DNA of 64,000 bases from contig CAYPWV010000001.1 of NCBI GenBank assembly GCA_964414795.1, positions 5,221 through 69,220 of the forward strand, in the 5' to 3' direction. This DNA comes from an uncultured Gammaproteobacteria bacterium. Lineage in GTDB: Bacteria > Patescibacteriota > Patescibacteriia > UBA9934. Positions 6,705-57,856 of this stretch are shown piece after piece. Within the stretch, counting starts at the first letter, position 1; each line of letters opens with the position of its first letter. Under the pieces are notes generated by a model that was not told the DNA's origin, did not search any database, and saw only the letters and a program-made list of their open reading frames with translations. Position numbers and translations under genes: made by a program.

Positions 6705-7313
6705 CTACTTCCTTCTATACGCAGTTGCGAGGGCATCGGCGTATTCGTTCCAGCGATTGCCTGCGTGCGCCTTGATCCACTGGAGCGTTATTTCGGGGCG
6801 ATCTTCAAGCAGTGCATGTAACTCTTGCACAAGTTCTAAGTTTTTAATCTCTCCTTTTGATCCTTTTGCTCGTCTCCAGCCCAGCAATTTCCATTTATGA
6901 ATCCAGGTATTGAACGTATTTACACATAATTCACTGTCGGTATACACGACTGTTGTAACGCCACGCGGAACCAATCGACATGCCGCAAGAAGCCCCGTAA
7001 GTTCCATTCGATTATTTGTGGTGTGCGGTTCGTGTCCGCATTCTTCTGCAATAATTTCGTTATCAACCACATACACCGCTCCCCAACCTCCGGGTCCTGG
7101 ATTTGGGTCTGCAGATCCATCAGTAAACACGCCGGACATCGGACCAGCGATATATTTTTCTAGCACCTCAGCTTTTGAAAAATTCTTTTCTCGTGCAGAA
7201 GAAAATTTCTTACAATTCATGCACGTGCTTGGATTCCATCCAGGAAACTTTGCAAGCGTTGCCGCAGGAAAAGAAAACGCTTTATTGCACACTTTGCAGA
7301 GAAATGAGGACAT
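6705..7313 (-). CDS. rnhA: Ribonuclease HI with N-terminal zinc-ribbon
   Basis: TDGSADPNPGPGGWGAV, NNRMELTGLLAA, YTDSELCVNTFNTWIHKWK, AHAGNRWNEYADALA are RNase H catalytic motifs. Confidence 0.85.
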   Translation of the reverse strand: MSSFLCKVCNKAFSFPAATLAKFPGWNPSTCMNCKKFSSAREKNFSKAEVLEKYIAGPMSGVFTDGSADPNPGPGGWGAVYVVDNEIIAEECGHEPHTTNNRMELTGLLAACRLVPRGVTTVVYTDSELCVNTFNTWIHKWKLLGWRRAKGSKGEIKNLELVQELHALLEDRPEITLQWIKAHAGNRWNEYADALATAYRRK

Positions 7314-7435
7314 AAAACTATTTTACAAAACTAGTTCGAAACTGTGACAGTTTGTCACGGTTTTATTTTTCATAATATGGTGTAAAAACACCTTTACATA
7401 CCGATTATTACCGCAAAAATTTTCATGATCCCAAT

Positions 7436-8419
7436 TTATTTCTTTTCAAGATCTTCATATATCTTTTTTGCTATGTGATAAGCAAAATTAACCGGCACGG
7501 CATTGCCAATCATTTTATAACCGTCAGCTACATCACGATATTTGAAAATAAAATCATCAGGAAATGTTTGTATTCTTGCACACTCTCTCACGGACAGACG
7601 GCGATACAAATCCTCTTTACCTGGAACGAAAATCCTTTCATTTTGAGAAATAAATTTCATTTTTGGGGCTTGTGGATGCAATGGGGCATGGCGACCTCCT
7701 GCCTGAATAGTAAATGAAGGCTCGTCCCATGAGCGTACACGATTTCTCGACATATATATTGTCGAAAATCCTCCTGTCATATACTCATGATTTGGAATTT
7801 TCAAACTGTCGCCATGGGTTTTGTTTTTTTCTAAAGCAGGTTCTGCTGAGCCTAAGTTATAAATTGCATCTTTCAAAACTGGCTTATATTTTTGTGGCTG
7901 AGGAAATTCAAACTTCTTTTTTAAGTCTTTTCTATAGCCAACGATAATAACACGCAAACGATCCTCTGGAACATCAAAATCATTTGCATTTAAAAGTTGG
8001 TATGAAATTGCATACCCAGCATTCTCGAATTCTTTTAAAATTGCATTAAATGCATCTGCGTGTTTTGGGTGCAAAATACCAGACACATTTTCTGCAAGGA
8101 AAAATTTTGGCTGCTTATCTTTTAAGATGCGAATATAGTCATAAAATAACTTACCTCTTTGGTCATCTATTCCCCTCCCCGCACCTGCCTCACTCCAACT
8201 TTGACATGGTGGTCCACCAACTATTCCATCGATAATTGGAACATCTTCACTTTTAACATCCGTAATACTTCGAGTATCTAGCGTTGTATTAGGAAAGTTT
8301 AATTTGAACGTATCCCAAATCGACGAATCATATTCATTTGCCCAAGCAATGTGAAAACCAGCTTTTTCAAAGCCCTTATCCAGCCCTCCTGCACCTGAAA
8401 AAAAAGAAGCTATTTTCAT
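7436..8419 (-). CDS. DNA (cytosine-5)-methyltransferase, HaeIII-like (predicted GGCC specificity)
   Basis: C5-MTase motifs FSGAGG (I), GGPPCQSWSEAG (IV), ENV (VI), RECARIQTFPDDF...GNAVPV (IX/X). Strong resemblance along the whole length to M.HaeIII as recalled from memory. AT-rich relative to its flanks. Confidence 0.9.
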   Translation of the reverse strand: MKIASFFSGAGGLDKGFEKAGFHIAWANEYDSSIWDTFKLNFPNTTLDTRSITDVKSEDVPIIDGIVGGPPCQSWSEAGAGRGIDDQRGKLFYDYIRILKDKQPKFFLAENVSGILHPKHADAFNAILKEFENAGYAISYQLLNANDFDVPEDRLRVIIVGYRKDLKKKFEFPQPQKYKPVLKDAIYNLGSAEPALEKNKTHGDSLKIPNHEYMTGGFSTIYMSRNRVRSWDEPSFTIQAGGRHAPLHPQAPKMKFISQNERIFVPGKEDLYRRLSVRECARIQTFPDDFIFKYRDVADGYKMIGNAVPVNFAYHIAKKIYEDLEKK

Positions 8420-8423
8420 AAAA

Positions 8424-9404
8424 TTAATCTTGACTAAGATTAAGAATATTTTTAAATAGTTTTTTAGGCGACTTTAAAAGATTGATATCAAACTTTAAAG
8501 AAGATTCAACCCGAGAACTTGCATTATGAATTCTAAAAGAAAGAGTCCAATCATTGTCCATTGTTACTATCACCGTGGTATCACTACCAGTTTTAAAATC
8601 AATATCAATAATCTCTGTCGGCAATGGAACTTTTGGAGTTTTATATTTAGGTTGAACATCCTTGAAAGGTAAATTCAAAGAACCATTTATATTATATGCA
8701 TGGATTTCCACTTTATTCTTACCCTTAACAACTTTATAAAAATCCCTATTTCCCACAAGATAAGCGACAAGATTTGATGCAACTTTAGTAGGATTTTCTT
8801 CTTGAAGACTTCTAAGTTCTTCGATAAATGCTTTTAAAATTGGAATGTAAATATCTGCATGATAGTCACCAATCTCGCTCCACTTTTTTGTAGCATTACT
8901 TTCTTTTCTGATCTTTTCTAAATTATTAAAAATCGGTATTACTTTATCAAAATAATTTTCAGAAACTTTAATACCAAACCATTTTTCGCCGAAATTAATG
9001 TTTGAAGAAAGTCTTGAGTGCTTTACTGCGTGATGATTATTTTTTGCGGATATACCTATTTCCCATTTCTGCAAAAGACGTATGACTAAAACATCACGCA
9101 CATCTCCAGATTTTCCTTTATCGTCAGATAAAATTTCAAGTTGAAGAATATCATCTTCACTGATATCGTTTGAAAGCCTTGGCTCAATATCCATTAAAAA
9201 ATTAACAGCAAAACTTGCAGAAAGAGAATATCCGCTTCGTTCTAAGTCTGACACACTGTCAAAACATTCTTTTGCAATCTGAAAAGAAGAATTTTTAATA
9301 ACCCGTACATTTGTTTTATTTTTAAGTTTTTCCTCGAATTGAACGAGTAGGGAGTATTCAAAGGATTTTCCGGTTATCATTTGTTTTGATTTTTTTGATG
9401 CCAT
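8424..9404 (-). CDS. Putative type II restriction endonuclease partner of the HaeIII-like methylase
   Basis: 326-aa AT-rich ORF 4 bp upstream of the methylase on the same strand. Its size matches HaeIII-family REases. The assignment rests on context; I recognised no catalytic motif. Confidence 0.55.
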   Translation of the reverse strand: MASKKSKQMITGKSFEYSLLVQFEEKLKNKTNVRVIKNSSFQIAKECFDSVSDLERSGYSLSASFAVNFLMDIEPRLSNDISEDDILQLEILSDDKGKSGDVRDVLVIRLLQKWEIGISAKNNHHAVKHSRLSSNINFGEKWFGIKVSENYFDKVIPIFNNLEKIRKESNATKKWSEIGDYHADIYIPILKAFIEELRSLQEENPTKVASNLVAYLVGNRDFYKVVKGKNKVEIHAYNINGSLNLPFKDVQPKYKTPKVPLPTEIIDIDFKTGSDTTVIVTMDNDWTLSFRIHNASSRVESSLKFDINLLKSPKKLFKNILNLSQD

Positions 9405-9416
9405 AAAGTTATTCTT

Positions 9417-11183
9417 CTATATTGTACCTCCTTTCTGTACATCCACTACGCGATACTGCAATGAACGCTTGCCGTTCCAGGTATTTACCTCAACTTCGTA
9501 GGCGATGTCGAGGTGATCGCCGGTACGAAGAACGGATGCGAGGTGACCAAAGCCAAACCCCACAAACGTTATTTGTTTACCGTTTAGTTCTCGCGTAACA
9601 AAACGAAGATGCGCACCCGTGGAACCCATGCGGACGGTTTCTTCAAGCATAAGATCGCGAGCTGCGAAAACGGGCGGGCGGTTTCCTTCGCCAAAAGGTG
9701 CGCATTGCATAAGAAGCGCATGAAGTTCCCAAGACACTTCAGAAGGTGCGTGCACCGCATCTACATGCAATACATCACACGGTCCATCTGCACCGTAATA
9801 GGCTTGCGCAAACGCATTTCCTCGTGCACGAAAAAGAGCAATCATGTCGGGATTATGTAAAGAAAGTCCACATGCTTGCGGATGACCTCCGCGCTTGATG
9901 TACAGCTCATCTCCGCACGCATTCATCAACTCAACAAGATGTAACCCGCCCAAACTTCTTCCCGAACCCACCACATGATCTCCCACATTGGTGAGCGCAA
10001 ACGCAGGCTTGCCAAAATCATTCTGCAAACGCCCCGCGATAAGACCAACGATGCCCGGAAGCCAATGCGGCGCATAGGCTACAAGCAACTGATCTTCCTT
10101 ATACTCTCGCTCTACTTGCTCAACCGCTTCTTTATACATTTGCTGAAACACTGACTGCCGATCACGATTCAATCGCTCGAGCACGTTTGCTTTTTCTACA
10201 GCTTCCTCAGGCGTTTTTGCGGATAATGTTTCAAACGCCGCCGAAGCAGACGCCATACGCCCCGCTGCATTCATCCGCGGTCCAATACGAAAACCAATTG
10301 CCGTCGTATCAATATCTGCAAACTCGGTTCCACTCATTTCTACAAGTGCGCGAAGTCCTGGACGACGCGTTTTTTGCAGCACGCGCAAACCGTAATATTC
10401 AAGCACGCGATTCTCTCCAATGAGTGGCATGACGTCGGTAACGGTTGCGATTGCCACCAAATCCAAAAACCATTTTTCATATCCTTGTGCGAATGCTGCT
10501 CCTCGTTTTTGCGCTTCGGTAATCAGTGCAGAGGCGAATTTGAAGGCAACTCCCGTGCCGCACAAGGTTTTGTTGGGATAGGTCTCTCCTGGAGCAGAAG
10601 GATGCAAAATAATGGCGTGCTCGGGAAAGTGCTGGCCCATTTGATGGTGATCGCACACGATGACTTGCATGCCGAGTTCGTGTGCTCGCCCAAGTTCAAC
10701 GCCATTTGCGATGCCACAATCAACCGTCACCAAAAGCTCTACGCCTTCCGACGCAAAACGCTCAATGGTATGCAACGCAACGCCGTAGCCATCTTTTTCT
10801 CGATCGGGGAGAAAGGTTACAACATTTGCCTGCCATCCCAACTTTTCTGCAATTTCTTGGAGCGCACCAAACAAGAGCGTTGTTCCGCTTACACCATCTG
10901 CATCATAATCGCCATGAATAACAATGCGTGCACCGCTTTCAAGCGCGTCCATCATCGTATCCACCGCCTCTTGCATACGCGTAAACGCAAACGGGCTGTG
11001 TGTTCCGCTTTCCCACGATGGCGTAAGAAATGATTCTTTCTGCTCCGGATCAATCCCGCGATTTACTAAAAGCTGTGCAAGGAGATCGTCCTGCACACGT
11101 TCAGCAACATGCCACTTTTTTGTTGAAAATGTCTTTTGTTTTTCTATAGAAAATAACCTTAGCAGATATTTCTTCTTCGCCAA
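9417..11183 (-). CDS. recJ: Single-stranded-DNA-specific exonuclease RecJ (DHH/DHHA1)
   Basis: HGDYDADGVSG, VIVCDHHQ (DHH motif), 588 aa. Confidence 0.85.
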   Translation of the reverse strand: MAKKKYLLRLFSIEKQKTFSTKKWHVAERVQDDLLAQLLVNRGIDPEQKESFLTPSWESGTHSPFAFTRMQEAVDTMMDALESGARIVIHGDYDADGVSGTTLLFGALQEIAEKLGWQANVVTFLPDREKDGYGVALHTIERFASEGVELLVTVDCGIANGVELGRAHELGMQVIVCDHHQMGQHFPEHAIILHPSAPGETYPNKTLCGTGVAFKFASALITEAQKRGAAFAQGYEKWFLDLVAIATVTDVMPLIGENRVLEYYGLRVLQKTRRPGLRALVEMSGTEFADIDTTAIGFRIGPRMNAAGRMASASAAFETLSAKTPEEAVEKANVLERLNRDRQSVFQQMYKEAVEQVEREYKEDQLLVAYAPHWLPGIVGLIAGRLQNDFGKPAFALTNVGDHVVGSGRSLGGLHLVELMNACGDELYIKRGGHPQACGLSLHNPDMIALFRARGNAFAQAYYGADGPCDVLHVDAVHAPSEVSWELHALLMQCAPFGEGNRPPVFAARDLMLEETVRMGSTGAHLRFVTRELNGKQITFVGFGFGHLASVLRTGDHLDIAYEVEVNTWNGKRSLQYRVVDVQKGGTI

Positions 11184-24809: not shown

Positions 24810-25823
24810 TTAGATTCTTTTTGTTTGACCGAAATGTTCTTGATACCATTCCTTATAGTGCGCGCTTGCCTTAATAGGCTTCCACCACCATTCATTTTTT
24901 CGATACCACGTTACCATGTCGCGCAATCCTTCTTCAAACGTGGTAGATGGCTTCCATCCCAATTCTTGCTCTATTTTGTTAAAAGCAATGGCATATCGCT
25001 TATCTTGCCCAGGGCGATCGGGAAGGAATTCGAGCAATGATTCTTGGAGTCCCATGACCGAAAGAAGTGCCTTTGCAGTATCGAGAATAGTCATCTCTGC
25101 GTCCCCTCCCATCATGTATGTTTCTCCTATGCGTCCACGTTCAAGAATGGCAAGGATTCCTCGTGCGTGATCTCCTGCAAAAATCCAATCACGAACCTGA
25201 TGACCATCTCCATGAACAGGAATACCATCACCCGCTAACAAATTAGTGATCCAAATAGACAAAGCTTTTTCTGGATACAAGAATGCGCCGTAATTATTTG
25301 TGCAGTTAGAAATGGTTGCCTGCAAGCCATGCGTTTCAATCGCTGCACGCACCAAATGATCGGATGCGGCTTTGGTTGCACTGTACGGATTGCGAGGATT
25401 GTACGGCGTTATTTCTGAAAACTTTGGATCATTGGGCGAAAGTGATCCGAACACCTCATCGGTAGAGACATGGTGCAGGCGTTTTCCAAAACGCAAACAG
25501 GCATCAATCAGGCGCTGTGTTCCCAAGATGTTGGTGAGAATAAAAGGCTCAACGTCAACAATAGAACGGTCAACATGCGTCTCTGCCGCAAAGTGAGCAA
25601 CGGCATCAACCCCCGAAATTAAATGTTCCACGAGCTGCTTATCGGTAATGCTTCCATACACGAATTTATAGCGCGTATTTAACTGAAAATCTACGGTATT
25701 TACTAAATTCCCCGCGTAGGTAAGTGCGTCAAGATTTACCACTTCCCAATCGGGACGCTCGGCGATGATTGTACGAATAAAGTGCGATCCAATAAACCCG
25801 CAGCCTCCGGTTACCAAAATCTT
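24810..25823 (-). CDS. rfbB: dTDP-glucose 4,6-dehydratase
   Basis: MKILVTGGCGFIGSHF...YSATKAASDHL (YxxxK) SDR family, RmlB-like. Confidence 0.9.
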   Translation of the reverse strand, partial: KILVTGGCGFIGSHFIRTIIAERPDWEVVNLDALTYAGNLVNTVDFQLNTRYKFVYGSITDKQLVEHLISGVDAVAHFAAETHVDRSIVDVEPFILTNILGTQRLIDACLRFGKRLHHVSTDEVFGSLSPNDPKFSEITPYNPRNPYSATKAASDHLVRAAIETHGLQATISNCTNNYGAFLYPEKALSIWITNLLAGDGIPVHGDGHQVRDWIFAGDHARGILAILERGRIGETYMMGGDAEMTILDTAKALLSVMGLQESLLEFLPDRPGQDKRYAIAFNKIEQELGWKPSTTFEEGLRDMVTWYRKNEWWWKPIKASAHYKEWYQEHFGQTKRI

Positions 25824-25881
25824 CATAGTTTCTTTGAGGGTAACATACGCCCTAAAAAGGGACAACAGCAGGAAGCTCGCT

Positions 25882-26325
25882 CTAGTCAGCTAATTCCCGA
25901 TAAAAAATCCCGGCACGAATAGAGGCTAAAGCGCCTCTCACATTGGGAATGGTATTTTCGGGCAAAGCATCCCAGGAATACCACGCAATTTCATCACATT
26001 TTCCTGGCTCTTTATTCACGATCTCTCCCGTCCAGCTCGCACAAGAGTAGAAAAAGTCGATTCGTTCTCCATCGTTGCAATGCAGGCGATGCTGGACATG
26101 CACAAAGGTAAGATCTTGGGGGTTGATGATTATGCCAATTTCTTCCCGTGCCTCACGTGCCATAGCTTCAGTAAGCGACTGCCCGCCATCATGATGACCA
26201 GCGGGAACGCAATACCACCCATCGCGATATCCCGTATTTGCTCGACGCATCAACAAGATTTTATCTTCGCGCATAAGCATGAGATAAACCGCAGGGATTA
26301 CTTTAAAGCGTTCTTTGAGAAGCAT
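25882..26325 (-). CDS. NUDIX hydrolase
   Basis: Nudix box GHHDGGQSLTEAMAREAREEIGI. Confidence 0.7.
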   Translation of the reverse strand: MLLKERFKVIPAVYLMLMREDKILLMRRANTGYRDGWYCVPAGHHDGGQSLTEAMAREAREEIGIIINPQDLTFVHVQHRLHCNDGERIDFFYSCASWTGEIVNKEPGKCDEIAWYSWDALPENTIPNVRGALASIRAGIFYRELAD

Positions 26326-26399: not shown

Positions 26400-26804
26400 T
26401 TACATCGACAAAGAACGAATCTTTTCTACAATTATCGCGAGCTCTTCTTTGGAAGGATGTGTTTTTGTAAACGATCTGGTTTCGCCGTTTTTGCGAGGCA
26501 TGATGTGGACGTGGGTATGCATTACTTCTTGTCCGGCAGATTCGCCATGATTCATACCGAGATTATAGCCATCAGCGCAAACGGCTTGCATGATTTTTGG
26601 TGCGAGTACGTACACTGCACTTATCAGTTCTCGTGCGCTTTCGTCACTTCCTGCGGACAAATTTTCTGCATGTACTTTAGGAACAACAAGCGCGTGTCCT
26701 TCGCTCACCGGACCGATATCAAGAAATGCAATGACGTGATCGTTTTCAAAAATGATTTCAGAAGGAATTTCTTTGGCGATGATTTTACAGAATAAGCATT
26801 GCAT
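26400..26804 (-). CDS. HIT-family (histidine triad) nucleotide hydrolase
   Basis: HTHVHIMPR histidine triad; 134 aa. Confidence 0.8.
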   Translation of the reverse strand: MQCLFCKIIAKEIPSEIIFENDHVIAFLDIGPVSEGHALVVPKVHAENLSAGSDESARELISAVYVLAPKIMQAVCADGYNLGMNHGESAGQEVMHTHVHIMPRKNGETRSFTKTHPSKEELAIIVEKIRSLSM

Positions 26805-26807
26805 ATT

Positions 26808-27113
26808 TTACGACTGCTCAAGAATAATCCTCTTTTCAAAACCTCCCCGTTCGGCTTTCTTATGTTGCTTCTTTTCTAAAAGATTTTCAAATGTATCACC
26901 CGCAAGAAGGCCGAGTGCCTCAACAACTTCAAGAATATCCGCCAATTCATCAGACGATCCGCTTTTTCTATACTCATCCCATTCTTCCAAAAACTTCTCC
27001 CGCAACTTTTCGCGATATTCATCTTCGGTCGCAATGTGAAAGAGACACTCTTCGCCCTTTGCGATAATGCGATCAGGCATGTTGTCGCGCACCAGTTTAT
27101 TGTAGATGTTCAT
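26808..27113 (-). CDS. MazG-like nucleoside triphosphate pyrophosphohydrolase (small, all-alpha)
   Basis: 101 aa with an EEWDEY...SSDELADILEVVEAL motif pattern typical of the MazG/PRA-PH-like fold. Confidence 0.55.
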   Translation of the reverse strand: MNIYNKLVRDNMPDRIIAKGEECLFHIATEDEYREKLREKFLEEWDEYRKSGSSDELADILEVVEALGLLAGDTFENLLEKKQHKKAERGGFEKRIILEQS

Positions 27114-27118
27114 AGAGC

Positions 27119-27778
27119 TTACGGTAGTTTACTAAGTTCATCGCGCCTACGATGCAATTCTGCGTAGTCTTCTTCACGCCTTACAATGTTCCGAAGCTTT
27201 TTCAGCATATCGTCAGTGACTTGATTACGCGTGTAATACGTCTTGATCGTCTCTCCTGTGTCGAGATCGAAACGAGAGTCATACGTGTAATATTCCTCTA
27301 GACTATTTCGTCTCCCTCCTGCTGCTTCAAAACGCGCAACAAGTTTATCGTACATTACACGTCGTGTCGCGGTGTACACATCGGTATTTTCTTGCGACTG
27401 AACGTAAGCGACTTCTTCTTTACTCACACGAACATCACGAAACTCTTCACCAATCTTTTTGGCACGTCGTTCTTTAATCATCGCCACATCATGCGAGTGC
27501 TGAGCGATATCTTGTGCTTCTTCTCGCTGACGAATTTCTTGCAATACTGCACTTCTCGCTTCGGCATCAAGCGTCTTATGCTTTATACGTGCGTCGATAA
27601 CCATACAAGCCTGTAAAATATCCCTCTCCCCATCACTATGATAAGGGTTGGAATCTTTAGTACGTGGCAAAACGGCGGTAATATATTCAGGAGGAATTGA
27701 TCCCTTGATGACTACTTTTCCGTCCGTACGACCAGTAAGCGCATCAATTTTTGACGAAGGCACATCGAGAACCATCAC
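27119..27778 (-). CDS. Hypothetical protein (219 aa, charged, no recognised domain); GTG start overlapping the upstream stop (GTGA)
   Basis: Translationally coupled to the 73-aa ORF upstream. Confidence 0.45.
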   Translation of the reverse strand: MMVLDVPSSKIDALTGRTDGKVVIKGSIPPEYITAVLPRTKDSNPYHSDGERDILQACMVIDARIKHKTLDAEARSAVLQEIRQREEAQDIAQHSHDVAMIKERRAKKIGEEFRDVRVSKEEVAYVQSQENTDVYTATRRVMYDKLVARFEAAGGRRNSLEEYYTYDSRFDLDTGETIKTYYTRNQVTDDMLKKLRNIVRREEDYAELHRRRDELSKLP

Positions 27779-27996
27779 TTCTGCGGTTCCAAAATCCGCA
27801 GTTTGTTTTGCGTTTGTCGTTGCGGGAATAATGGAAGAAAAGATTCATTCTCAGGAACGGCAATGATCTCAGTGTCGATGCCATGCTCCGCAAGCATGTT
27901 ATGTAGTTGCTCATCGAGAGAACGCTCTCGATGATCATCTTCCCTATCTACCGTCCGTCGTCTGCCATCTTTTTCTTGCTCTTGAGAATCACTCAT
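27775..27996 (-). CDS. Small charged hypothetical protein (73 aa)
   Basis: In operon. Contains a short family-C-like motif (CCGTCCGTCGTCTGCC) in-frame. Confidence 0.35.
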   Translation of the reverse strand: MSDSQEQEKDGRRRTVDREDDHRERSLDEQLHNMLAEHGIDTEIIAVPENESFLPLFPQRQTQNKLRILEPQK

Positions 27997-28207
27997 ACTT
28001 TTTCAAAAATACGTACTCGATCAAAAGCAAACATCCCGGAATAAGAACCAACACCGGAAACGGAAACACATACGAAACAAATCCCGAATGTCGCCATTCA
28101 AAAAACGCGAATACGAAAAATGCGATGAACCAAGTGATGAAATGACGATGGATGTTTTTCACAGATTTAATATCCTGATGCTGTTTTCTGTTTCTTAAAT
28201 TCTTCAA
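27989..28207 (-). CDS. Small membrane protein (72 aa, 2 TM)
   Basis: Hydrophobic helices; overlaps neighbours by 8 and 41 nt. Confidence 0.35.
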   Translation of the reverse strand: MKNLRNRKQHQDIKSVKNIHRHFITWFIAFFVFAFFEWRHSGFVSYVFPFPVLVLIPGCLLLIEYVFLKKYE

Positions 28208-29681
28208 TTAAATCAGGGTAAGCCTCCATGCGGCGTTCAAAATTCTGAAGTTTATCAATGGGTATCTTTTGTCCACGAAACTTATTTTCCAGCTGTACAA
28301 AAAACATGTGCATATATTTGGGGATGTGCTCACGGATCATTAACTCACCTTGCTTTTTTATCCCCTCTCCATACTCAGGAAGAACCATTTTACTTATATC
28401 AAGAAAGATACGACGTTCATTATCAATCGTTTGTTGAAATTCTCTGGGATTGAAGAAGATATTAAAAATATCGCTCTGAATCACCTCTCTCCTTGCGACC
28501 CAATCATTAAGAAATGATCTTATTGATGCGGTGAAGAAATGAACAAGCTTTTTCTCGACATCAAGAGGATCTTGCTCTGAATATTCCGCCGCCCTAAAAA
28601 ACTTTTCTTTATATTTATTAAAATCTTCTCGAAGGAGATGAAAAATAGTTTCTGGTGTACTCGACGAAAAAGCAGTTTTTATAAAGAGATTAAAATGTAC
28701 AAAAGTTGGCCTGCTCCAGGCTTGATATTGACGCATCTTTACTTCTTTTGTTGAGCTCTTCTTCACGATTTCTTCAAACGTTATGCGAGAAAGAAGGTCT
28801 TTATATTCCTCAGGAATTATGCTTTTCCGTTGCTCAAACTCATCCTTATGTTCCCGAATAATATCCTCGCCGGAACGACTGTTGCTTAGAGCGTTATAAA
28901 ACAATACATATGACAAATGATCCTCGAATTTAGTAAACCATGCCTCAGCACCTTCCTTGATACATCTACCTATTCCCTTTTCATATGCATCACGTAATTT
29001 TTTAACATCAGAATACGTGGGTACGAATGCGATATTTCTCTCAAATTTAGCACGTGCATCTGCTATTTTTTTATTCATCTCTTCTAGAGAATTCGTTGCA
29101 CCAATATCAAATTCTCCAGCAAACTTTCCTTCTAGTCCGTCACGAACCCAAAATTCCAAACAATACTCTTGTAAAGAACATAATTTTTCTTCAAATAAAG
29201 ATTGATATTTACGTGCCTGATCAGGCGTGGCTTTTTTTAATTTTTCACTCAACTCGAAACGCTTTTCTCTACACAGCGCATGCCAAGAACTAACATCAAA
29301 ATTACCCGAAAGAACATCCAAAAACTTAAAAGAAAAATAGGAGGGAAATGTAAACTCTTTCTCAATCCATTCCAAAATTCGTTTTTCTAAAAACTCTGCC
29401 TCTTTTTTTTCACTCTCTGCTAAAGCGTCATATCGCTTCCTCTTTTCAGGTTTAGAGAGTATCTCCCACGCAGCAAGAATGGCAAGTGTCGCTCGCTCTC
29501 CGTGTTCAGTTTTATCTCTATCTTGATGGAACTTTCTAATGAGCTTACGAAAAGCTCTTTGGATTTCTTCATAAGATGCATCCTCTTGAACTCCTAAAAC
29601 TTGGTAAAAATTTCTGCCCTCCAGCGGATCAAATTCTTTTTCTTTAAGTCCTCTATATTTCTCTAATGCAAAGCTGTCCAT
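28167..29681 (-). CDS. J-domain protein with a non-canonical HQD in place of HPD (504 aa), AT-rich
   Basis: NFYQVLGVQEDASYEEIQRAFRKLIRKFHQDRDK...KRKRYDA J-domain signature at the N-terminus. The rest has no recognised domain. Confidence 0.55.
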   Translation of the reverse strand: MDSFALEKYRGLKEKEFDPLEGRNFYQVLGVQEDASYEEIQRAFRKLIRKFHQDRDKTEHGERATLAILAAWEILSKPEKRKRYDALAESEKKEAEFLEKRILEWIEKEFTFPSYFSFKFLDVLSGNFDVSSWHALCREKRFELSEKLKKATPDQARKYQSLFEEKLCSLQEYCLEFWVRDGLEGKFAGEFDIGATNSLEEMNKKIADARAKFERNIAFVPTYSDVKKLRDAYEKGIGRCIKEGAEAWFTKFEDHLSYVLFYNALSNSRSGEDIIREHKDEFEQRKSIIPEEYKDLLSRITFEEIVKKSSTKEVKMRQYQAWSRPTFVHFNLFIKTAFSSSTPETIFHLLREDFNKYKEKFFRAAEYSEQDPLDVEKKLVHFFTASIRSFLNDWVARREVIQSDIFNIFFNPREFQQTIDNERRIFLDISKMVLPEYGEGIKKQGELMIREHIPKYMHMFFVQLENKFRGQKIPIDKLQNFERRMEAYPDLIEEFKKQKTASGY

Positions 29682-29748
29682 AGGTGTTTATTACGTAATA
29701 ATTTTTTTCTTTTTCATAACATCCCACCCCCTAGCCCCAACACCCTCC

Positions 29749-30360
29749 CTACAATCTCCTCTCCCATAATCCTTTCACAAACCATTTTACCTCACCCATA
29801 ACAGACGTTGTGCGTATAAATGTTATGTCAACCGCATGAATGATGGGCTTTTCGGATATATCTTCGACTCCTGGAAGCGATAAAATGAGTTTATAAGCTC
29901 CGTTTTCTTTTTGCACGTTATCTAAAGAGAATGATGCTGTGCCGGATGTCCATTGATCGCTTTCCTGTTGAGAAGTAAGCGGTGAAAGAGTAAAGGTTTG
30001 TTGTGTGAAATTTTGCATTAAGCCGAGTTCGAATTTTTCTTGATCGTGCAGGTCGTAAGCGACGCTCACGTGCATCTCTTGCCACAGGCCCGCAGGAGGG
30101 ACTATCGACATGTACAACGGTTCGTCGATCGCCGTTATGCATGTGCCGCGATCATCAGCACAAGATGCCGTACGATTATCAGGAAGAGGTCGACCGATGA
30201 GCACTGAGTTCTCCCCTGCTTTCCAAGAAATAGTTTTTTCGCCCGATGGTGCGAGATAGATCCACGTGAGGATAGAAAATAATAAGACGGGAAGCGCTAT
30301 GGGAAGGAGCCAGGGAATAATAAGATGACGATCTTCTCTTTTATTCTCGGGTAATTGCAT
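29749..30360 (-). CDS. Membrane-anchored hypothetical protein (203 aa)
   Basis: Single N-terminal TM, then a soluble domain; overlaps the upstream GT-C gene by 20 nt. Confidence 0.4.
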   Translation of the reverse strand: MQLPENKREDRHLIIPWLLPIALPVLLFSILTWIYLAPSGEKTISWKAGENSVLIGRPLPDNRTASCADDRGTCITAIDEPLYMSIVPPAGLWQEMHVSVAYDLHDQEKFELGLMQNFTQQTFTLSPLTSQQESDQWTSGTASFSLDNVQKENGAYKLILSLPGVEDISEKPIIHAVDITFIRTTSVMGEVKWFVKGLWERRL

Positions 30361-43389: not shown

Positions 43390-46300
43390 TTAGAACCGTA
43401 CTGATGAAGCACCGCTGAAGTCAGTGATGTCGACGAGGTATGCACCCCACCAGTCATCCTGGCCACCAACAGAACCGGACACACCATCATCCTTCCACAT
43501 GAAGGAAGCTGGCATGCGGTCAACGTCATCAGCCGCATCGTTGTTTGTACCAGCACTGTCACGTGCGGTGTTCAAGTAGCCACGAACAACGGTAAGGTCG
43601 TTCGTTGCAATGTTCACCAAGAGCATAAGCTCATCACCCGAAGCACAAGCGTTGTCAGCCGTGTCCATACAGAGAATATCTCCAATGGTGTAGGCAGCGC
43701 CGCTCGTTACACTGAGTGTAGTGTCAGTTGCTGTTACGTTGCTCTCGTTGAGGTCGCTTGCTGAGAGGAAGCTTGCTGCAGCAATGATCGGATCAGCTAC
43801 GATCTCGAACAATACGCTGTCATTATCAGCGCTTGCACCAGCCGCACTCATGTAGAGCGAATACGTCTTGGTGGTTCCCGCTGGAACAACTTCATCAGCA
43901 CTAAAGGTTGCCCGTACGTAAGTGAGATCTGCTGCGGTACCATCACACACTGCACCCGTAGACTTATAGAGAGTCCACGCTGCGTCTGCGGTGTCAAGAG
44001 CAGTCGTGAGGTTCGAACGATCATAGATGTCGAACTCAGTAGATGCCTTAACGTAGGTGCCAGGAGAAGAAGTATCACACGTATTCCAGTCAGATGCGGT
44101 CGTATCGGTAGCGGTCAACTTAAAGAGGACGCTATCCATAACCACATCTTCGCTAGAAGTTGCGGACACATTGAAACGAAGTACTTCAGGACGTCCACCT
44201 GCAACACCAGAGGTTGGGGAAGAGGAAGAACGAGCCACAGAAGGGTAAGATTCTTTTACTACGAAGGTAGGAACCAAATCGGTTGCGAATGCATCGTCAC
44301 CAATTGCGGATGCCTGATCATCGTCATCAAGAGTAGAACCCGATCCATCACCCGTTACCTGGAAGTTATCATCGCCCGTTGTGTCTACAAAGAGACCCAT
44401 ACGAACCATTTCGTTTGATGTTGCCGATCCACCAGACACACGGTCGGTAGAAGGAACATTCACATACACTTCAACATCGGTAGGTTCATCAACTGCTACA
44501 GGGATCGAGAGACCCGAGAAGCGAGCTGCATTTCCTGACATAGATGCGCTTGGAGCAGAACCCTCCATGCCATCCCATGCAAGAGAAACCGTGGAAACGT
44601 TGTTTGCATATGCACTTGAATCTGCAGTTCCTGTATCATCCTCAGCTTGCTCTTCAGAGAAGGAAAGCGTGTTGATAGTGAATGCTTCGTTCGTTGCCGT
44701 GAAGCGGTACGTTCCTACGTGGTTGTTTGAAGAACCGGTACGAAGGAAGTCTGCATCTGGCATGTCTGCAGCAACTGCTACAGAGAGCGATCCGGATGCG
44801 TTTACCGAAACAATGTTTGTTGCTGCGGTACCACCGTTTACTGCATCACCCGTTGCCGTTACCGTGTCACCATCTTCATCTTCTGCGGTAATGTCGGCGC
44901 TAACGTCGGCAAGATCAAAAGAGAGATAGGTAACCGTAGCTTCGGAAGGGTTTGCAAGATTACACTCTACATTCAAGGTAACTACATCGGATGATTCAAG
45001 GATCCAATCCATGTTGTCGAAGGTGATGGTGTTACCCGTTGAAGCAGGAGCTTCAGGACCACCTACAAGCGTACTGCCATCGTAAAGAGAGCAGGACTCA
45101 ACATAATCTTCTACCTGACCATCTGTTTCACCACCAAGTACCAACGTGGTGTCGTCAGCATCTCCATAAGCGGAGAGCACAATGTCGGTAACCGTTACAT
45201 CGGAGGAGTCACCTGCCGTTACAGTAAAGCCTACAACCGTATGGCTGTCGGTACCCTGAACGGTCGTGGTGTCACCTGGCGTAGAAGCCAAAGCGATTGT
45301 AAGGGAAGCGGACAATGCTTCTTGGTTATAACCGGTAAGGTCAGAACCAGGAACGATGTCAGATCCAGAAAGTGCGTCACCATTGCCGTCTTCGATCGAA
45401 AGACCGGAAACGTCAAGAGCAGCAGCAAATTCGGTACCCGAAGTTGCAGAGCTATCAATGTCTGCAGTAACTGCAAGGTTCAAGGTTGAACCCGCTTCAA
45501 TTGTGGTGTCGTCCGTGAAGTCGATGGTTTGATCTGCGTCATCACCTGCGGTGACTGCAGAATCAAGTTCCAAAGGACCCATGAATACAGCACCGGTATC
45601 TACGTTGATGATCTTGATATCTTTCAAGTTTGCATCAGCCGTGTTGATCAAACCGTCAGCATCAGAAGCTGCGGCACCAGAGGAATCATCTACTGCATCA
45701 GTTGCATCGTTATCGCCGTCGTCATCACCGTACACGATGATGTCGAGGTCCTTAACGGTAACTTCCTGAGCTGCGGTAAGAGAGAACTCCAAGAGAACCT
45801 GATCTTGACCATCAACCTGAACGTCGCCTGCGGAAGGACCATTAAATGCGAACGTTACTTCGCCACCCTGCACGGTACTGAATGAACAGTTACCGGAAGA
45901 AGTGGTACAAGAAGTACCGTCGTATGAACCGGAGTCTGCGGAAGCGATGTACACCGTGAGGCCATGACCGTAGTCACCACCCTCAGCAACAACGTCAATC
46001 GCATTGTCTACGAATACCTTAACGGTATCTGCATCTTGACCACCGATATCAGCGGAAAGACGGAAGATATTGCTGTCACCTTCTTCGATGTCAAATGGAC
46101 TATCGGAAAGATCACAAACAACCTGATCGCTCACGGTGTTTTCACACACAACGAGCCATTCAGAACCATCCCATAGGTTGTAATCTGAGTGATCGGAAGC
46201 GTTATCAACCTTGAGGGTGATAAGTTCTACCGAAGCATCTTCAGAACCCGTTGCATCGATTTTGAACTCTGCAATTTCTGCATCGTCTTCACCGATGGTT

Positions 46301-47523
46301 GGGTTATCAATGGTACCCGTCTTGGTAATGGTTACGTTACCGGAATCAGATCCAGAAAGCGTAAATTCATCACCAGAAACTGGGAAGTCTCCGTCTACAT
46401 CACCAGAAGCGGTGATCATCTCTGCAGATTCAATTTCGAATCCGAAAGTGTCAGCCGCGGTTTGAGACGCAGAAACGGTTACCTTGACATCAAGAGTTAC
46501 CGTTTCACCTGCAGGGATCTCCACATCAAGCGAACTCATAGTAACTTCGCGTGTAGAAGAGTTCACCGTGCGAGATTCGGTAAGACGCGTTGCACCTTCG
46601 TAAAGGTACACTGCAGCAATATTGGTGGTAGCACCTGCACCTGTTAAGGAGAGGACAAGACCATCAAGTGTTGCATCCTCAGAACCTGCTTCAACGTCGA
46701 AAGAGAATACTTCAACGCCATTTGCGCCACCTGTTACGGTGGAACCTACTGGCATAGAAGAAGCTTCGGAGATAGTGATATCACCCGTTGTAGTAGGCTC
46801 ATCAGTTTCTTCGGTTTGTGCAGCATCTACAAGAGAGGTCACTTCCGAAGAAATGTCATCACCTGCAGTAAGTGCGCTGTCATCGATGCCGGAACCATCC
46901 AAAACGAATTTGGACATAAGACCATTAGCATCCATGCCATCATCACTTACCATACGCATTTCATCATCCCATGAAAGGTACGTATAGCTACCAGACTCGT
47001 AAAGAGCTCCTTCGTATACGGTAGCCTCCATAAGAGAGGTGCCTACGGTGTAATCTGCAAAGAATACATCAGGAACGTCAACAACTCGGCTGCTCCAATC
47101 GGAACCGGCAAAGTCTTCAGCGACGTCTTCAGATTCAATCCAGTGGAGCATGCCGTCGCGAGCAACTGCATACACACTTTCATCAGACTGTACCTTTACC
47201 CACCAAGAACCAGGACGCATAACCACGTTACCACCAAGGGTAATGTCGGAAAGAGCGCTGTCGGAGATGGTAGATACATCATCAAAGTCAGCGTACCAAG
47301 AGAAGAACGTGGTTTCGTTAGGGAATACGTAGCGCTCGCCGTCATAACCGTAGTAATAAACGGTGGAGAGAGACGTTCCCTTGATGAGATCGCCAGCAGA
47401 AGCTGCGCTCACCGATGCAGGGGAAACAAGAAGGCCTGCACCTACGGAGAAAGCAATGGTCGCCGCAGCTACTGCTGCAGAGAAAACACGCTTACCCGTT
47501 TGAAGAACATGTTGCATAAGCAA
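43390..47523 (-). CDS. Giant secreted acidic repeat protein (1377 aa), putative cell-surface/S-layer-like or adhesin
   Basis: Signal peptide (AFSVGAGLLVSPASVSAASA), then repetitive Thr/Ser/Asp/Gly-rich beta-type segments. No stops over 4.1 kb. Confidence 0.7.
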   Translation of the reverse strand: MLMQHVLQTGKRVFSAAVAAATIAFSVGAGLLVSPASVSAASAGDLIKGTSLSTVYYYGYDGERYVFPNETTFFSWYADFDDVSTISDSALSDITLGGNVVMRPGSWWVKVQSDESVYAVARDGMLHWIESEDVAEDFAGSDWSSRVVDVPDVFFADYTVGTSLMEATVYEGALYESGSYTYLSWDDEMRMVSDDGMDANGLMSKFVLDGSGIDDSALTAGDDISSEVTSLVDAAQTEETDEPTTTGDITISEASSMPVGSTVTGGANGVEVFSFDVEAGSEDATLDGLVLSLTGAGATTNIAAVYLYEGATRLTESRTVNSSTREVTMSSLDVEIPAGETVTLDVKVTVSASQTAADTFGFEIESAEMITASGDVDGDFPVSGDEFTLSGSDSGNVTITKTGTIDNPTIGEDDAEIAEFKIDATGSEDASVELITLKVDNASDHSDYNLWDGSEWLVVCENTVSDQVVCDLSDSPFDIEEGDSNIFRLSADIGGQDADTVKVFVDNAIDVVAEGGDYGHGLTVYIASADSGSYDGTSCTTSSGNCSFSTVQGGEVTFAFNGPSAGDVQVDGQDQVLLEFSLTAAQEVTVKDLDIIVYGDDDGDNDATDAVDDSSGAAASDADGLINTADANLKDIKIINVDTGAVFMGPLELDSAVTAGDDADQTIDFTDDTTIEAGSTLNLAVTADIDSSATSGTEFAAALDVSGLSIEDGNGDALSGSDIVPGSDLTGYNQEALSASLTIALASTPGDTTTVQGTDSHTVVGFTVTAGDSSDVTVTDIVLSAYGDADDTTLVLGGETDGQVEDYVESCSLYDGSTLVGGPEAPASTGNTITFDNMDWILESSDVVTLNVECNLANPSEATVTYLSFDLADVSADITAEDEDGDTVTATGDAVNGGTAATNIVSVNASGSLSVAVAADMPDADFLRTGSSNNHVGTYRFTATNEAFTINTLSFSEEQAEDDTGTADSSAYANNVSTVSLAWDGMEGSAPSASMSGNAARFSGLSIPVAVDEPTDVEVYVNVPSTDRVSGGSATSNEMVRMGLFVDTTGDDNFQVTGDGSGSTLDDDDQASAIGDDAFATDLVPTFVVKESYPSVARSSSSPTSGVAGGRPEVLRFNVSATSSEDVVMDSVLFKLTATDTTASDWNTCDTSSPGTYVKASTEFDIYDRSNLTTALDTADAAWTLYKSTGAVCDGTAADLTYVRATFSADEVVPAGTTKTYSLYMSAAGASADNDSVLFEIVADPIIAAASFLSASDLNESNVTATDTTLSVTSGAAYTIGDILCMDTADNACASGDELMLLVNIATNDLTVVRGYLNTARDSAGTNNDAADDVDRMPASFMWKDDGVSGSVGGQDDWWGAYLVDITDFSGASSVRF

Positions 47524-55966: not shown

Positions 55967-56824
55967 ATGAAAACGCTGACTACAAGAGAATTCAATAAGA
56001 AATATACCAATGACGACGCTTGTCTTCAAGCTATTTTTGTAGCTCGATACGGTGGAGAAATATGTCCTTTCTGTCATAAGGAAGCGAATTTTTATAAATT
56101 AAATGGGCGAAAATGTTATCTCTGTTCTGTTTGCAAAGAGCATATTTATCCGTTGGCGGATACCATTTTTCACAAATCAGACACTCCTCTTAGAAGTTGG
56201 TTTGAAGCTATTTATAAGTTTGCCAATAGCCGTAATGGTGTAGCCGCTACCGAACTACAACGTGATCTTGGAGTGACCTATAAATGTGCATGGCGTATGG
56301 CGCGACAAATTCGTTTGCTATTTGAAACGAATAATCTTTTCCTGTCTGGCACGGTCGAAGCAGATGAGACATATGTCGGCGGCAAGCGGCGTGGTATTCG
56401 TGGTCGTGGTGCGAATGGTAAAACTCCGGTGTTCGGTATTGTAAAGCGCGGCGGTGAAGTCTTTGCTAAAACTGTGTCAAACGTGAAGGCATCAACTGTC
56501 ATGCCGTTAATCCGTAAGAATGTAAAGATTGGTACAACCGTAATGACGGACGAGTTCGGTATCTACAACAATACGAGACAATCCGGATACAGACATGAGC
56601 GTGTCAACCACGGAGCTAGGGAATACGTCCGTGGCGAAGTTCACACTAATACGATCGAAGGCTTCTGGTCACAGATGAAGCGGTCAATAGACGGTACACA
56701 CCACTCTGTAAGTTCTAAGCACCTCCAACACTACGTCGATGAATTCGCTTTTCGCTATAACCATCGGAACGCTTCATCTTTCCTTTTTGATCTGATGCTC
56801 GAACGGGCTGTGCAGCGATTTTAA
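55967..56824 (+). CDS. IS1595/ISXO2-like DDE transposase
   Basis: N-terminal Zn-ribbon (CPFCHK...CSVCKE), ISXO2-like core (EADETYVGGKRRG...GIVKRGGEV...MTDEFGIYN...HERVNHGAREYVRGEVHTNTIEGFWSQMKR). Confidence 0.9.
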   Translation: MKTLTTREFNKKYTNDDACLQAIFVARYGGEICPFCHKEANFYKLNGRKCYLCSVCKEHIYPLADTIFHKSDTPLRSWFEAIYKFANSRNGVAATELQRDLGVTYKCAWRMARQIRLLFETNNLFLSGTVEADETYVGGKRRGIRGRGANGKTPVFGIVKRGGEVFAKTVSNVKASTVMPLIRKNVKIGTTVMTDEFGIYNNTRQSGYRHERVNHGAREYVRGEVHTNTIEGFWSQMKRSIDGTHHSVSSKHLQHYVDEFAFRYNHRNASSFLFDLMLERAVQRF

Positions 56825-56896: not shown

Positions 56897-57856
56897 CTAA
56901 TCTTCTACAGTTTTGGTATTCTTCATTTCGATCTCTTTTTCACTTTCGACCCTTTGCTGTCTTAGAGAGGGTTGATTTAATGTTTCAATTATCTTTATCG
57001 CCGGTGTGACAATGGCTATACCCATGTTGACATTTTTTTCTTCCTCTTTTTTCGCATCTTCATCAGAAGGTAAATTATCAATCGCATCTTCAGAAGTCGG
57101 ATAATGCCCATGGATTAAACCTCCTAACCAAAATGGTCTCCCTCCTACATATGTCGTTCCGTTCTTTTGATTCGGTTCTTGAAAAAAAACAGGAGATCCA
57201 CTGATTCCGCCGATTGACCTCGCTTCTATAAGATACGCATCAATCTCACCATAGCTGGAAGTTTTTATTTTTTCTTGGGAGAGCATCGCGACATTTCCGG
57301 TTCTGACAATGGGAAGATTCTTCTTTTGTCCGTAGTGTCTACTAAATAAACCGGTAATGAATACCTCATTTCCTATCCCGATTTTACCATCTTTAATATG
57401 CTCCTCTGTTAATAACATCTCAATAGGAATCGTCATAACGTCATGTCTCTCTCTATCAAGAGAAAAAGGAATAACTACAACATCAGCGGGATTGTTATCG
57501 TGATCCGGATGCTCGAACCAATCCGCTGAACCCCCTAAACTAACGATATCTTTTCCTCCGTCGTGTGTATTTATGCTAATTCTTAAATTATCCAGCCCAT
57601 ACTTTTTTACTTTTGCGATGTTATGATGAGCAGTAACTAAGTAAATGAAGCCAAGATTTTTATTTACATCTGAAGGAATGGAAACTAAGAATCCCGTTCC
57701 ACCAAAATGACAACTTTTTACATTTTTCTCATCAGTTTGTTCGATCCCGATAAAGACAACACACTTTAAAACTTCATCCGGTATGAACATATTCCAATCT
57801 TTTGGCGGACTTAGATAATAGCGGACAACGCCGCCTAAACGGGTGTCGCTAATCAT
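56897..57856 (-). CDS. Cytoplasmic trypsin-like serine peptidase (S1, Trypsin_2-like), passenger gene of the IS
   Basis: Catalytic His (YLVTAHHN), Asp (NPADVVVIPF), Ser (GGISGSPVF). No signal peptide or TM seen. Confidence 0.7.
   Translation of the reverse strand: MISDTRLGGVVRYYLSPPKDWNMFIPDEVLKCVVFIGIEQTDEKNVKSCHFGGTGFLVSIPSDVNKNLGFIYLVTAHHNIAKVKKYGLDNLRISINTHDGGKDIVSLGGSADWFEHPDHDNNPADVVVIPFSLDRERHDVMTIPIEMLLTEEHIKDGKIGIGNEVFITGLFSRHYGQKKNLPIVRTGNVAMLSQEKIKTSSYGEIDAYLIEARSIGGISGSPVFFQEPNQKNGTTYVGGRPFWLGGLIHGHYPTSEDAIDNLPSDEDAKKEEEKNVNMGIAIVTPAIKIIETLNQPSLRQQRVESEKEIEMKNTKTVED

Follow-up and report, generated by a model that had tools for sequence, protein, structure and literature searches.

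Do five tightly packed genes on one strand, led by a gene for a J-domain protein in which the HPD tripeptide reads HQD, belong to one functional system, or does the packing join genes of different history? The five open reading frames lie on the minus strand between positions 26808 and 29681 of the window (the whole stretch of DNA analysed, 64,000 nucleotides), as initially annotated, and their surroundings are an envelope polysaccharide gene cluster. They had been interpreted as a five-gene operon, and as a phage-derived or stress-related module. Gene order in related genomes takes this unit apart. We think it rather likely that the locus is a mosaic, in which a conserved chromosomal string of genes has received extra DNA at two junctions in one lineage, with a J-like orphan inside that extra DNA.

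The order membrane glycosyltransferase-like protein, 197 aa protein, small protein with two transmembrane segments (2-TM), MazG-like protein, HIT protein, an optional NUDIX protein and the rml genes is found in six related Patescibacteria lineages. The flanking genes are 50-87% identical in those loci, and the J gene, the 73 aa ORF and the 219 aa ORF are absent from all six. A local tblastn search of 29 loci from other genomes (E<=1e-2) gave no match to any of these three proteins. We assign the genes for the small membrane protein, the MazG-like, the HIT and the NUDIX protein to a conserved backbone because relatives keep them while lacking the other three. As reconstructed, the backbone string would comprise a CDP-alcohol phosphatidyltransferase, a polytopic membrane protein of ~550-600 aa, an anchored protein of ~200 aa, the small 2-TM protein, a MazG-superfamily NTP pyrophosphohydrolase, the HIT protein, in some cases the NUDIX protein, and rmlB/C/D. 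The backbone gene next to the J gene (29749-30360, minus strand) encodes a 203 aa protein with an N-terminal membrane anchor and no Pfam match; its orthologues in the related loci L003-L011 are 65-69% identical, and in relatives it directly precedes the small membrane protein gene.

The MazG-like gene (26808-27113, minus strand) encodes a 101 aa protein of the COG4997 type, an all-alpha NTP pyrophosphohydrolase according to family naming and motifs. Its family counts over 1159 homologues, for which NCBI and JGI use the names NTP pyrophosphohydrolase and house-cleaning NTP pyrophosphatase (MazG superfamily). The first description as MazG-like, with HIT and NUDIX genes following, is supported. 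In 40 sequences of this family (45-85% identity) the residues K6-D10 (KLVRD), E43, E44, E47, E56, D59 and E62 are invariant, and the acidic metal-binding motifs (EExxE ... ExxD) are present in the 101 aa protein. It thus resembles members of COG4997 and the MazG superfamily in its size of ~100 aa, its KLVRD N-terminus and the invariant EE..E / E..D..E, but membership is reached through weak matches at the level of the family, the protein itself falling under all Pfam thresholds. Of the 40 family members, 21 match PRA-PH (best E=6e-5), 15 match MazG-like (best E=5e-5) and 7 match MazG, all weakly. A profile of the family compared with the PDB placed the HisIE PRA-PH domain and iMazG-type chains on top, at E values which are not significant (0.2-0.5), and PDB sequence searches with the 101 aa and 219 aa proteins returned nothing significant. 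The HIT-family nucleotide hydrolase/transferase (134 aa, 26400-26804, minus strand) is HinT-like (PF01230, E=5.3e-26; NF045834 HinT, E=4e-32, below its cutoff), carries the histidine triad H-T-H-V-H-I-M and has orthologues of 70-79% identity after MazG in all relatives. The NUDIX hydrolase (147 aa, 25882-26325, minus strand; PF00293, E=9.3e-19) has a counterpart at the same position in L003 and L006 and none there in L007, L008, L010 and L011.

The small membrane protein gene (27989-28207, minus strand) separates the two variable junctions. Its product is 72 aa long when read from TTG at 28207 and 57 aa long when read from GTG at 28162, the more likely start. This GTG lies four nucleotides past the stop codon of the J gene, is preceded by AGGA and begins at the conserved part of the protein. 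The protein shows 64-73% identity and 37 invariant columns to ORFs of 68 and 79 aa in L003 and L006, and tblastn matches are found in L003-L011 (in L001/L002 the gene is not called). In five of the six lineages the MazG-like gene follows it directly; in L011 a NUDIX-like ORF stands between the two. On both sides of it, blastn homology to the relatives is interrupted: it is lost at 29764-29749, returns at 28150, is lost again at 28034 and returns at 27114. The first interruption would correspond to an insertion of ~1.6 kb (29748 to ~28163), low in GC and with the J-like orphan as its sole gene, and the second to an insertion of ~0.9 kb with the 73 aa and 219 aa ORFans. Upstream, the first inserted segment ends in the 67 nt intergenic leader of the J gene (29682-29748, minus strand), which is G-rich and then AT-rich; a scan for promoters and terminators yielded little information and found no promoter in this leader, and inspection of the sequence showed no Shine-Dalgarno-like motif adjoining the ATG of the J gene. 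The searches for flanking direct or inverted repeats resembling insertion scars, and for a target-site duplication, an integrase or another transfer signature flanking the J gene, were negative.

The genes had been described as translationally coupled through overlaps of 4-41 nt, which needs correction at two places: the 41 nt overlap between the J gene and the small membrane protein gene is an artefact of the longest-ORF rule, and between the 219 aa ORF and the MazG-like gene there is a gap of 5 nt and no overlap. The J, 73 aa and 219 aa genes share a strand with the backbone genes and leave little room between them, which makes co-transcription with the backbone probable. The tight packing is positional and does not imply a shared function.

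The J gene (28167-29681, minus strand) encodes a 504 aa protein, whose residues 24-85 match PF00226 over model positions 1-63 (E=3.9e-16, 59.3 bits against a cutoff of 27.8). This is the sole Pfam match of the protein; a G/F-rich linker, a zinc finger (PF00684) and a DnaJ C-terminal domain (PF01556) are all absent from it. The NCBIfam DnaJ/CbpA models cover residues 21-108 only and score far under their cutoffs. The N-terminal J domain with HQD, as first reported, is thereby upheld: the tripeptide is His52-Gln53-Asp54 (codons CAT CAA GAT), and in an alignment with the nearest J domains Gln53 falls exactly in the proline column of HPD. These nearest domains all carry HPD, which in them is invariant and in the 504 aa protein is not kept. 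The difference is a single nucleotide (CAA against CCA), and His52, Asp54 and the basic residues of helix II are retained.

Evidence on the proline of HPD comes in part from scanning mutagenesis. In a study with simulations of P34A this residue is described as needed to orient H33 and D35 (PMC13012618). HPD is near-universal among ~280,000 J-domain proteins, natural variants such as HPE occurring in ~1% of them (PMC10410713), and our literature search turned up no J domain with HQD. The HQD protein is probably impaired as an activator of DnaK. The retained basic helix II, His52 and Asp54 would probably still allow docking on DnaK, which is assumed to be present in the genome (the 64 kb window contains no DnaK gene). 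Pro34, in E. coli DnaJ numbering, would orient the His and the Asp for productive contact, and a Gln in its place should leave DnaK with little or no stimulation of its ATPase; clients or targets would be bound by the C-terminal part, which is helical and unique.

Like the class C (type III) bacterial J proteins (DjlA, orphans unrelated to CbpA, DjlB/DjlC), the 504 aa protein has an N-terminal J domain and no G/F region, zinc finger or DnaJ C-terminal domain. Many class C members also have C-terminal parts that are unannotated, and such a lineage-specific remainder, common in the class (PMC10410713), is what we find here. The protein differs from the class in having HQD and not HPD or the HPE of DjlB/DjlC, in a C-terminal part of 410 aa without any relative, in the lack of a partner operon and, unlike DjlA, in the lack of a membrane anchor. 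It is best classed as an orphan class C J-like protein. Pam16/Tim16 and DNAJB13 are proteins with J-like domains lacking HPD (see also PMC10410713). Like the 504 aa protein they combine the J fold and a tripeptide other than HPD, and altered or lost stimulation of the Hsp70 ATPase is expected for all of them; those families are conserved and hold to their variant motif in many species, whereas here the variant is seen in a single sequence. HQD may therefore not be an adaptation, since it is known from one sequence and lies one nucleotide from HPD.

The 410 residues beyond the J domain are all-helical and unique to the lineage. Searched with phmmer against 1.84e9 representatives, they matched only themselves and one protein (P0128), which we rejected as a spurious relative: it consists of 3832 aa of near-identical tandem repeats, and 15 weak stretches inflate its score. 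A word-index homologue search with the whole protein returned the protein itself and J-domain matches and nothing else, the PDB sequence search with the C-terminal part gave no significant match, and one JGI metagenome DNA-pattern scan, placed over the codon for Gln53, likewise found no relative, as did one scan at the protein level. Internal repeats were not found in the J protein, nor was similarity among the proteins of the inserted segments or paralogues within the window. The structure prediction that had been proposed as a check recovers the J fold, in models of low confidence: the AF2 model of the 504 aa protein, made without an alignment, is all-alpha with a mean pLDDT of 61.5, and its J domain overlays solved ones at 2.3-2.8 A across ~63-70 residues. 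In a Foldseek search against PDB and BFVD the J fold alone was matched. Two Logan assemblies contain the identical sequence, which is also recorded on a 102.6 kb NCBI contig (the record only).

The two ORFs of the second junction are of unequal standing. The 219 aa ORFan (27119-27778, minus strand) is lineage-specific and has a GC content typical of the genome; it finds only itself among 5.8e9 clusters, has no match in Pfam, NCBIfam, PHROG or PDB and no relative in IMG/VR. It is predicted to be mostly helical, its AF2 model without an alignment being of low confidence too (mean pLDDT 59). The 73 aa ORF (27775-27996, minus strand), acidic with a pI of 4.9, forms a singleton cluster; among the six frames its own is the best by codon usage, yet with a score of ~0, and its status as a lineage-specific gene is weak. 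The J, 73 aa and 219 aa proteins are all singletons among ~15 billion proteins.

Composition also sets the two insertions apart. The initial annotation described the operon as low in GC, which holds for the J gene (GC 0.366, GC3 0.305, against 0.43-0.49 in its neighbours and a GC3 of 0.39-0.47 in the backbone genes) but not for the 73 aa and 219 aa ORFs, which have a GC of 0.45 like the rest of the genome. This difference argues against a single acquired cassette. The remaining low-GC patches of the window hold a HaeIII-type restriction-modification pair and an IS1595 transposase, whose presence fits an acquisition of the J gene, in our reading by horizontal transfer. By length alone only the 504 aa ORF is beyond chance: at 37% GC an uninterrupted ORF of 504 codons arose in 0 of 400 random 64 kb sequences, while ORFs of at least 219 aa occur 0.4-1.3 times, and ORFs of at least 73 aa more than 100 times, in random sequence of 64 kb. 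All annotated frames are the best frame by codon usage, the 73 aa ORF weakly so, and the scores of the J and 219 aa ORFs (0.17 for the latter) are comparable to those of HIT and NUDIX.

That the five genes make up one stress-related or phage-derived module, with the HQD protein as a decoy or sequestering factor for DnaK acting together with the membrane, charged, 219 aa and MazG-like proteins, we regard as very improbable. Such a module would agree with the packing on one strand, with the presence of HQD in an otherwise well-preserved J domain and with the fact that phages encode J-domain proteins, as seen in the J-domain matches in PHROG and INPHARED. Rki of phage RB43 is one such protein, and with this group (Rki; PHROG 14336, 11153) the 504 aa protein shares a stand-alone J domain, a unique C-terminal part and the character of an acquired low-GC gene. 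Against a phage origin, the similarity ends with the J domain: PHROGs matches of the J protein are restricted to it, searches in IMG/VR, INPHARED (tblastn) and BFVD brought up no relative for the non-J parts, and the window holds no hallmark gene (integrase, terminase, capsid, tail), the neighbours scanned against Pfam being housekeeping or envelope genes. PADLOC gave no significant match to a defence system, only marginal ones (E 0.001-0.02). A phage derivation is thus unsupported, and the module is further opposed by the unlike composition of the inserted genes and by the six lineages with the membrane protein, MazG and HIT genes and none of the other three. Because those relatives keep MazG, HIT and, where present, NUDIX without the J gene, the link of the J protein to these enzymes is an accident of the insertion site.

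A less remote, though still doubtful, alternative is that the J gene is a recent and transient acquisition without function, its key motif already inactivated (CCA to CAA), the 73 aa and 219 aa ORFs being dispensable or partly spurious. The singleton status of all three proteins, the single-nucleotide distance from HPD, the chance-like length and null coding score of the 73 aa ORF and the J gene without a Shine-Dalgarno-like motif speak for it, but a 504-codon frame that random sequence did not produce, codon-usage scores of the J and 219 aa ORFs equal to those of HIT and NUDIX, and the recurrence of the identical sequence in separate assemblies do not. It is improbable that HQD is simply tolerated in a fully working class C co-chaperone which recruits DnaK for a client specific to the lineage, such as an envelope-biogenesis factor from a neighbouring gene. 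The His and Asp that contact DnaK and the basic residues of helix II are kept, HPE-type variants do occur and the gene sits inside an envelope polysaccharide cluster; on the other side stand the role of the proline in orienting H33 and D35, a literature search without any HQD J domain and a neighbourhood due to insertion. We hold it quite improbable that the HQD protein is a horizontally acquired, lineage-specific modulator of DnaK in an ultra-small Patescibacteria cell, which would dock on DnaK but set off no hydrolysis, would serve as brake, decoy or, by way of its unique helical domain, tether to a target, and would work with the two neighbouring ORFans. With respect to the direction of change, a single loss in the other lineages, with the present one as outgroup, would also fit in place of a gain, especially for the 73 aa and 219 aa pair with their native-like GC.

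The mosaic reading is mainly of corrective value: genes that lie close together with overlapping starts and stops do not by that fact make a functional module in the compact genome of a Patescibacteria bacterium, and here such spacing ties conserved house-cleaning genes (MazG-like, HIT, NUDIX) to inserted DNA specific to the lineage. With the J-like protein there is one more orphan class C member whose tripeptide is non-canonical, and should HQD turn out to be a working state, nature would offer here a J domain able to bind Hsp70 but not to activate it. The junctions around the small conserved membrane protein gene accept different genes in different lineages, a modest point on genome plasticity in this group. 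These two junctions vary in the relatives as well, with a GIY-YIG gene and a 93 aa ORF in L006 and a NUDIX-like ORF of 183 aa in L011.

Seven ORFs follow one another on the minus strand between positions 25882 and 29681, among them all those of the initial annotation: the 504 aa J protein's gene (J gene, 28167-29681), a 72 aa ORF (small TM gene, 27989-28207), a 73 aa ORF (27775-27996), a 219 aa ORF (27119-27778), the 101 aa MazG-like protein's gene (26808-27113), and the genes for a HIT protein of 134 aa (26400-26804) and a NUDIX protein of 147 aa (25882-26325). Upstream are found a 203 aa ORF, a 598 aa polytopic membrane protein and a CDP-alcohol phosphatidyltransferase, and downstream the dTDP-rhamnose genes rmlB, rmlC and rmlD.

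The organisation of the locus becomes evident by comparison with the contigs of the closest homologues of the 101 aa protein (66-85% identity), which represent six independent lineages: L003-L005 (Logan SRR215247xx), L006 (GCA_965006295.1), L007 (JGI 3300079086), L008/L009, L010 and L011 (JBBTSN010000056.1, "Patescibacteria group bacterium"). All six carry, in this order, a CDP-OH transferase, a membrane protein of about 550 aa, a 197 aa protein, the small TM protein, the MazG-like protein and HIT. In the relatives rmlB comes after HIT, with NUDIX in between only in L003-L005 and L006. When all proteins of the window were compared by local tblastn to 31 loci (E<=1e-2), the backbone proteins were 48-87% identical in the relatives, and the 504, 73 and 219 aa proteins had no match outside the two Logan contigs identical to the window (L001/L002). 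DNA homology to the relatives breaks off where the 203 aa gene ends, at its stop codon (around 29749-29764), and returns at 28150 within the small TM gene; a second gap runs from 28034 to 27114, where the MazG-like gene starts. The window lineage therefore carries two extra segments, one of about 1.6 kb with only the J gene and its 67 nt leader, and one of about 0.9 kb with the 73 and 219 aa ORFs. The initial annotation is confirmed in part, but its coherent five-gene module is not supported, as the six lineages keep the small TM, MazG-like and HIT genes without the 504, 73 and 219 aa genes; the J gene lies at a variable position within a string of genes conserved in these Patescibacteria. The rmlB of the window (24810-25865, minus strand) shares 87% identity with its L007 counterpart (6767-7780) but only about 50% with those found at this position in the other relatives; these identities point to replacement or a mosaic make-up of the clade's rml genes.

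At the exact junction occupied by the J gene, between the 197 aa gene and the small TM gene, L006 carries a 98 aa GIY-YIG ORF and a 93 aa TM ORF (9168-9767), suggesting a recurrent insertion hot spot. The junction between the small TM and MazG-like genes, which in the window holds the 73 and 219 aa ORFs, is occupied in L011 by a 183 aa ORF (1610-2161) with a Nudix-box-like sequence recognised by eye.

Base composition favours a horizontal origin for the J gene. Its GC is 0.366 (GC3 0.305), against 0.43-0.49 (GC3 0.39-0.47) for the backbone genes into whose probable transcription unit it is packed. Low GC marks acquired DNA in this genome, because the only two other low-GC patches of the window are a complete type II restriction-modification pair (7436-9404, minus strand, patch GC about 0.38), composed of a C5 cytosine methylase (PF00145, E=3e-97) and a HaeIII-type endonuclease (PF09556, E=3e-97), and an IS1595-family transposase (55967-56824, plus strand; PF12762, E=2.5e-47). 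Adjoining the transposase is a 319 aa ORF without Pfam match (56897-57856, minus strand). The low GC ascribed to the whole operon applies to the J gene but not to the 73 and 219 aa ORFs (0.45-0.46), and because of this difference the pair is regarded as an older insertion or one separate from that of the J gene.

In 400 random 64 kb sequences generated from second-order Markov models an ORF of 504 aa never occurred, while ORFs of at least 219 aa arose 0.4-1.3 times and ORFs of at least 73 aa more than 100 times per 64 kb. By codon-usage log-odds, trained on 23 other ORFs of the window, most with Pfam or conserved-orthologue support, the annotated frame ranked first of six for every ORF. Scores of the J gene (0.16) and the 219 aa ORF (0.17) were comparable to those of HIT (0.20) and NUDIX (0.19), and that of the 73 aa ORF was about zero. 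The 72 aa ORF encodes a small 2-TM protein; gene calling on L001/L002 missed it, yet it is clearly conserved in the relatives, with 37 invariant columns. Its reported 41 nt overlap with the J gene exists if the first possible start codon is used, but is probably an artefact of that choice, since a GTG at 28162, preceded by AGGA and 4 nt past the J stop, opens onto the conserved HRHF...FFEWRH segment. The ancestral ATG region of the small TM gene aligns with the last J-gene codons and reads ATG in the relatives and ATC in the window, so that insertion of the J gene appears to have remodelled this start.

The J domain of the 504 aa protein is full-length (PF00226, E=3.9e-16, residues 24-85), and neither Pfam nor NCBIfam detected a second domain. 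As initially annotated, His52-Gln53-Asp54 occupies the HPD column in the alignment with the nearest J-domain relatives, all of which have HPD. Among about 280,000 J-domain proteins the HPD motif is nearly universal, the sole variant in that survey being HPE at about 1%, and in many class-C members the C-terminal part is unannotated (PMC10410713). The proline (Pro34) breaks helix II and keeps H33 and D35 oriented towards L391 and R167 of DnaK (PMC13012618). In the window protein the J fold, which is fused to a unique helical region, keeps the basic residues of helix II, the His and the Asp, and Gln replaces Pro; the protein would probably dock on DnaK and stimulate ATP hydrolysis poorly. That it is effectively non-functional is a less likely outcome, though one to be reckoned with, and full activity is quite improbable.

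HQD may be a lesion that arose recently in a transient, acquired gene; it is one nucleotide from HPD, as the codons are CAT CAA GAT. Alternatively it may be an adaptation, making the protein a brake, decoy or tether; that the protein is a genuine non-stimulating modulator is considered rather improbable. We class it as an orphan J-like protein of class C that carries HQD and belongs to a known, very heterogeneous kind.

An exhaustive phmmer search of 1.84 billion representatives gave no credible relative for its C-terminal 410 aa. One further match (P0128), a 3832 aa protein of near-identical tandem repeats, was rejected because 15 weak stretches add up to its score. The 219 aa protein had no relative in a collection of 5.8 billion clusters, and the J, 219 aa and 73 aa proteins are all singleton clusters. 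PDB sequences gave no further relatives of the J C-terminal part or the 219 aa protein, PHROGs and PADLOC nothing past the J domain, and IMG/VR, INPHARED and JGI metagenomes no further relatives. Within the J protein no repeats occur, and it resembles none of the neighbouring proteins. Single-sequence AlphaFold2 returned low-confidence models for the J protein (all-alpha, pLDDT 61.5) and the 219 aa protein (pLDDT 59), and Foldseek matched only the J fold.

Homologues of the 101 aa protein number more than 1159 and come mainly from Patescibacteria and DPANN archaea; NCBI/JGI name them nucleoside triphosphate pyrophosphohydrolase or house-cleaning NTP pyrophosphatase (MazG superfamily). No Pfam threshold is reached by the window protein, but membership in the MazG superfamily is well supported at the family level by these names, by residues invariant in an alignment of 40 members (K6-L-V-R-D10, E43, E44, E47, E56, D59 and E62) and by weak matches: PRA-PH in 21 of the 40 (weak), MazG-like in 15 and MazG in 7. 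The top PDB profile matches, the PRA-PH domain of HisIE and iMazG-type chains, were not significant. NCBI/Logan start the protein at Met12 (90 aa, P0007); the family-invariant KLVRD at residues 6-10 shows that this call is too short and that the start at 27113 is correct. Within the clade this is a conserved gene of the housekeeping kind and no part of an accessory module. It adjoins HIT also in distant Woesearchaeota, Chlamydiales and Firmicutes genomes (L016, 4572-5294; L022, 3476-4130; L025, 5001-5616), which hints that the real functional pairing is that of MazG-like with HIT, independent of the J gene. The Nudix box of the NUDIX protein, read from its translation, is G-HHDGG-Q-SLTEAMA-REAREEIGI, with the first Glu of the GX5E element replaced by Gln.

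A phage-derived or stress-related module is not supported. The ORFs scanned against Pfam include no phage structural, phage integration or chaperone genes. The window is ordinary chromosome, encoding LigA, RecJ, CTP synthase, FtsW, MraY, MurG, PilM and an S8 peptidase, together with many glycosyltransferases and an O-antigen-ligase-like protein. A 1377 aa ORF (43390-47523, minus strand), for which Pfam gave no match at E<=1e-3, may encode one of the large surface proteins that are typical of Patescibacteria.
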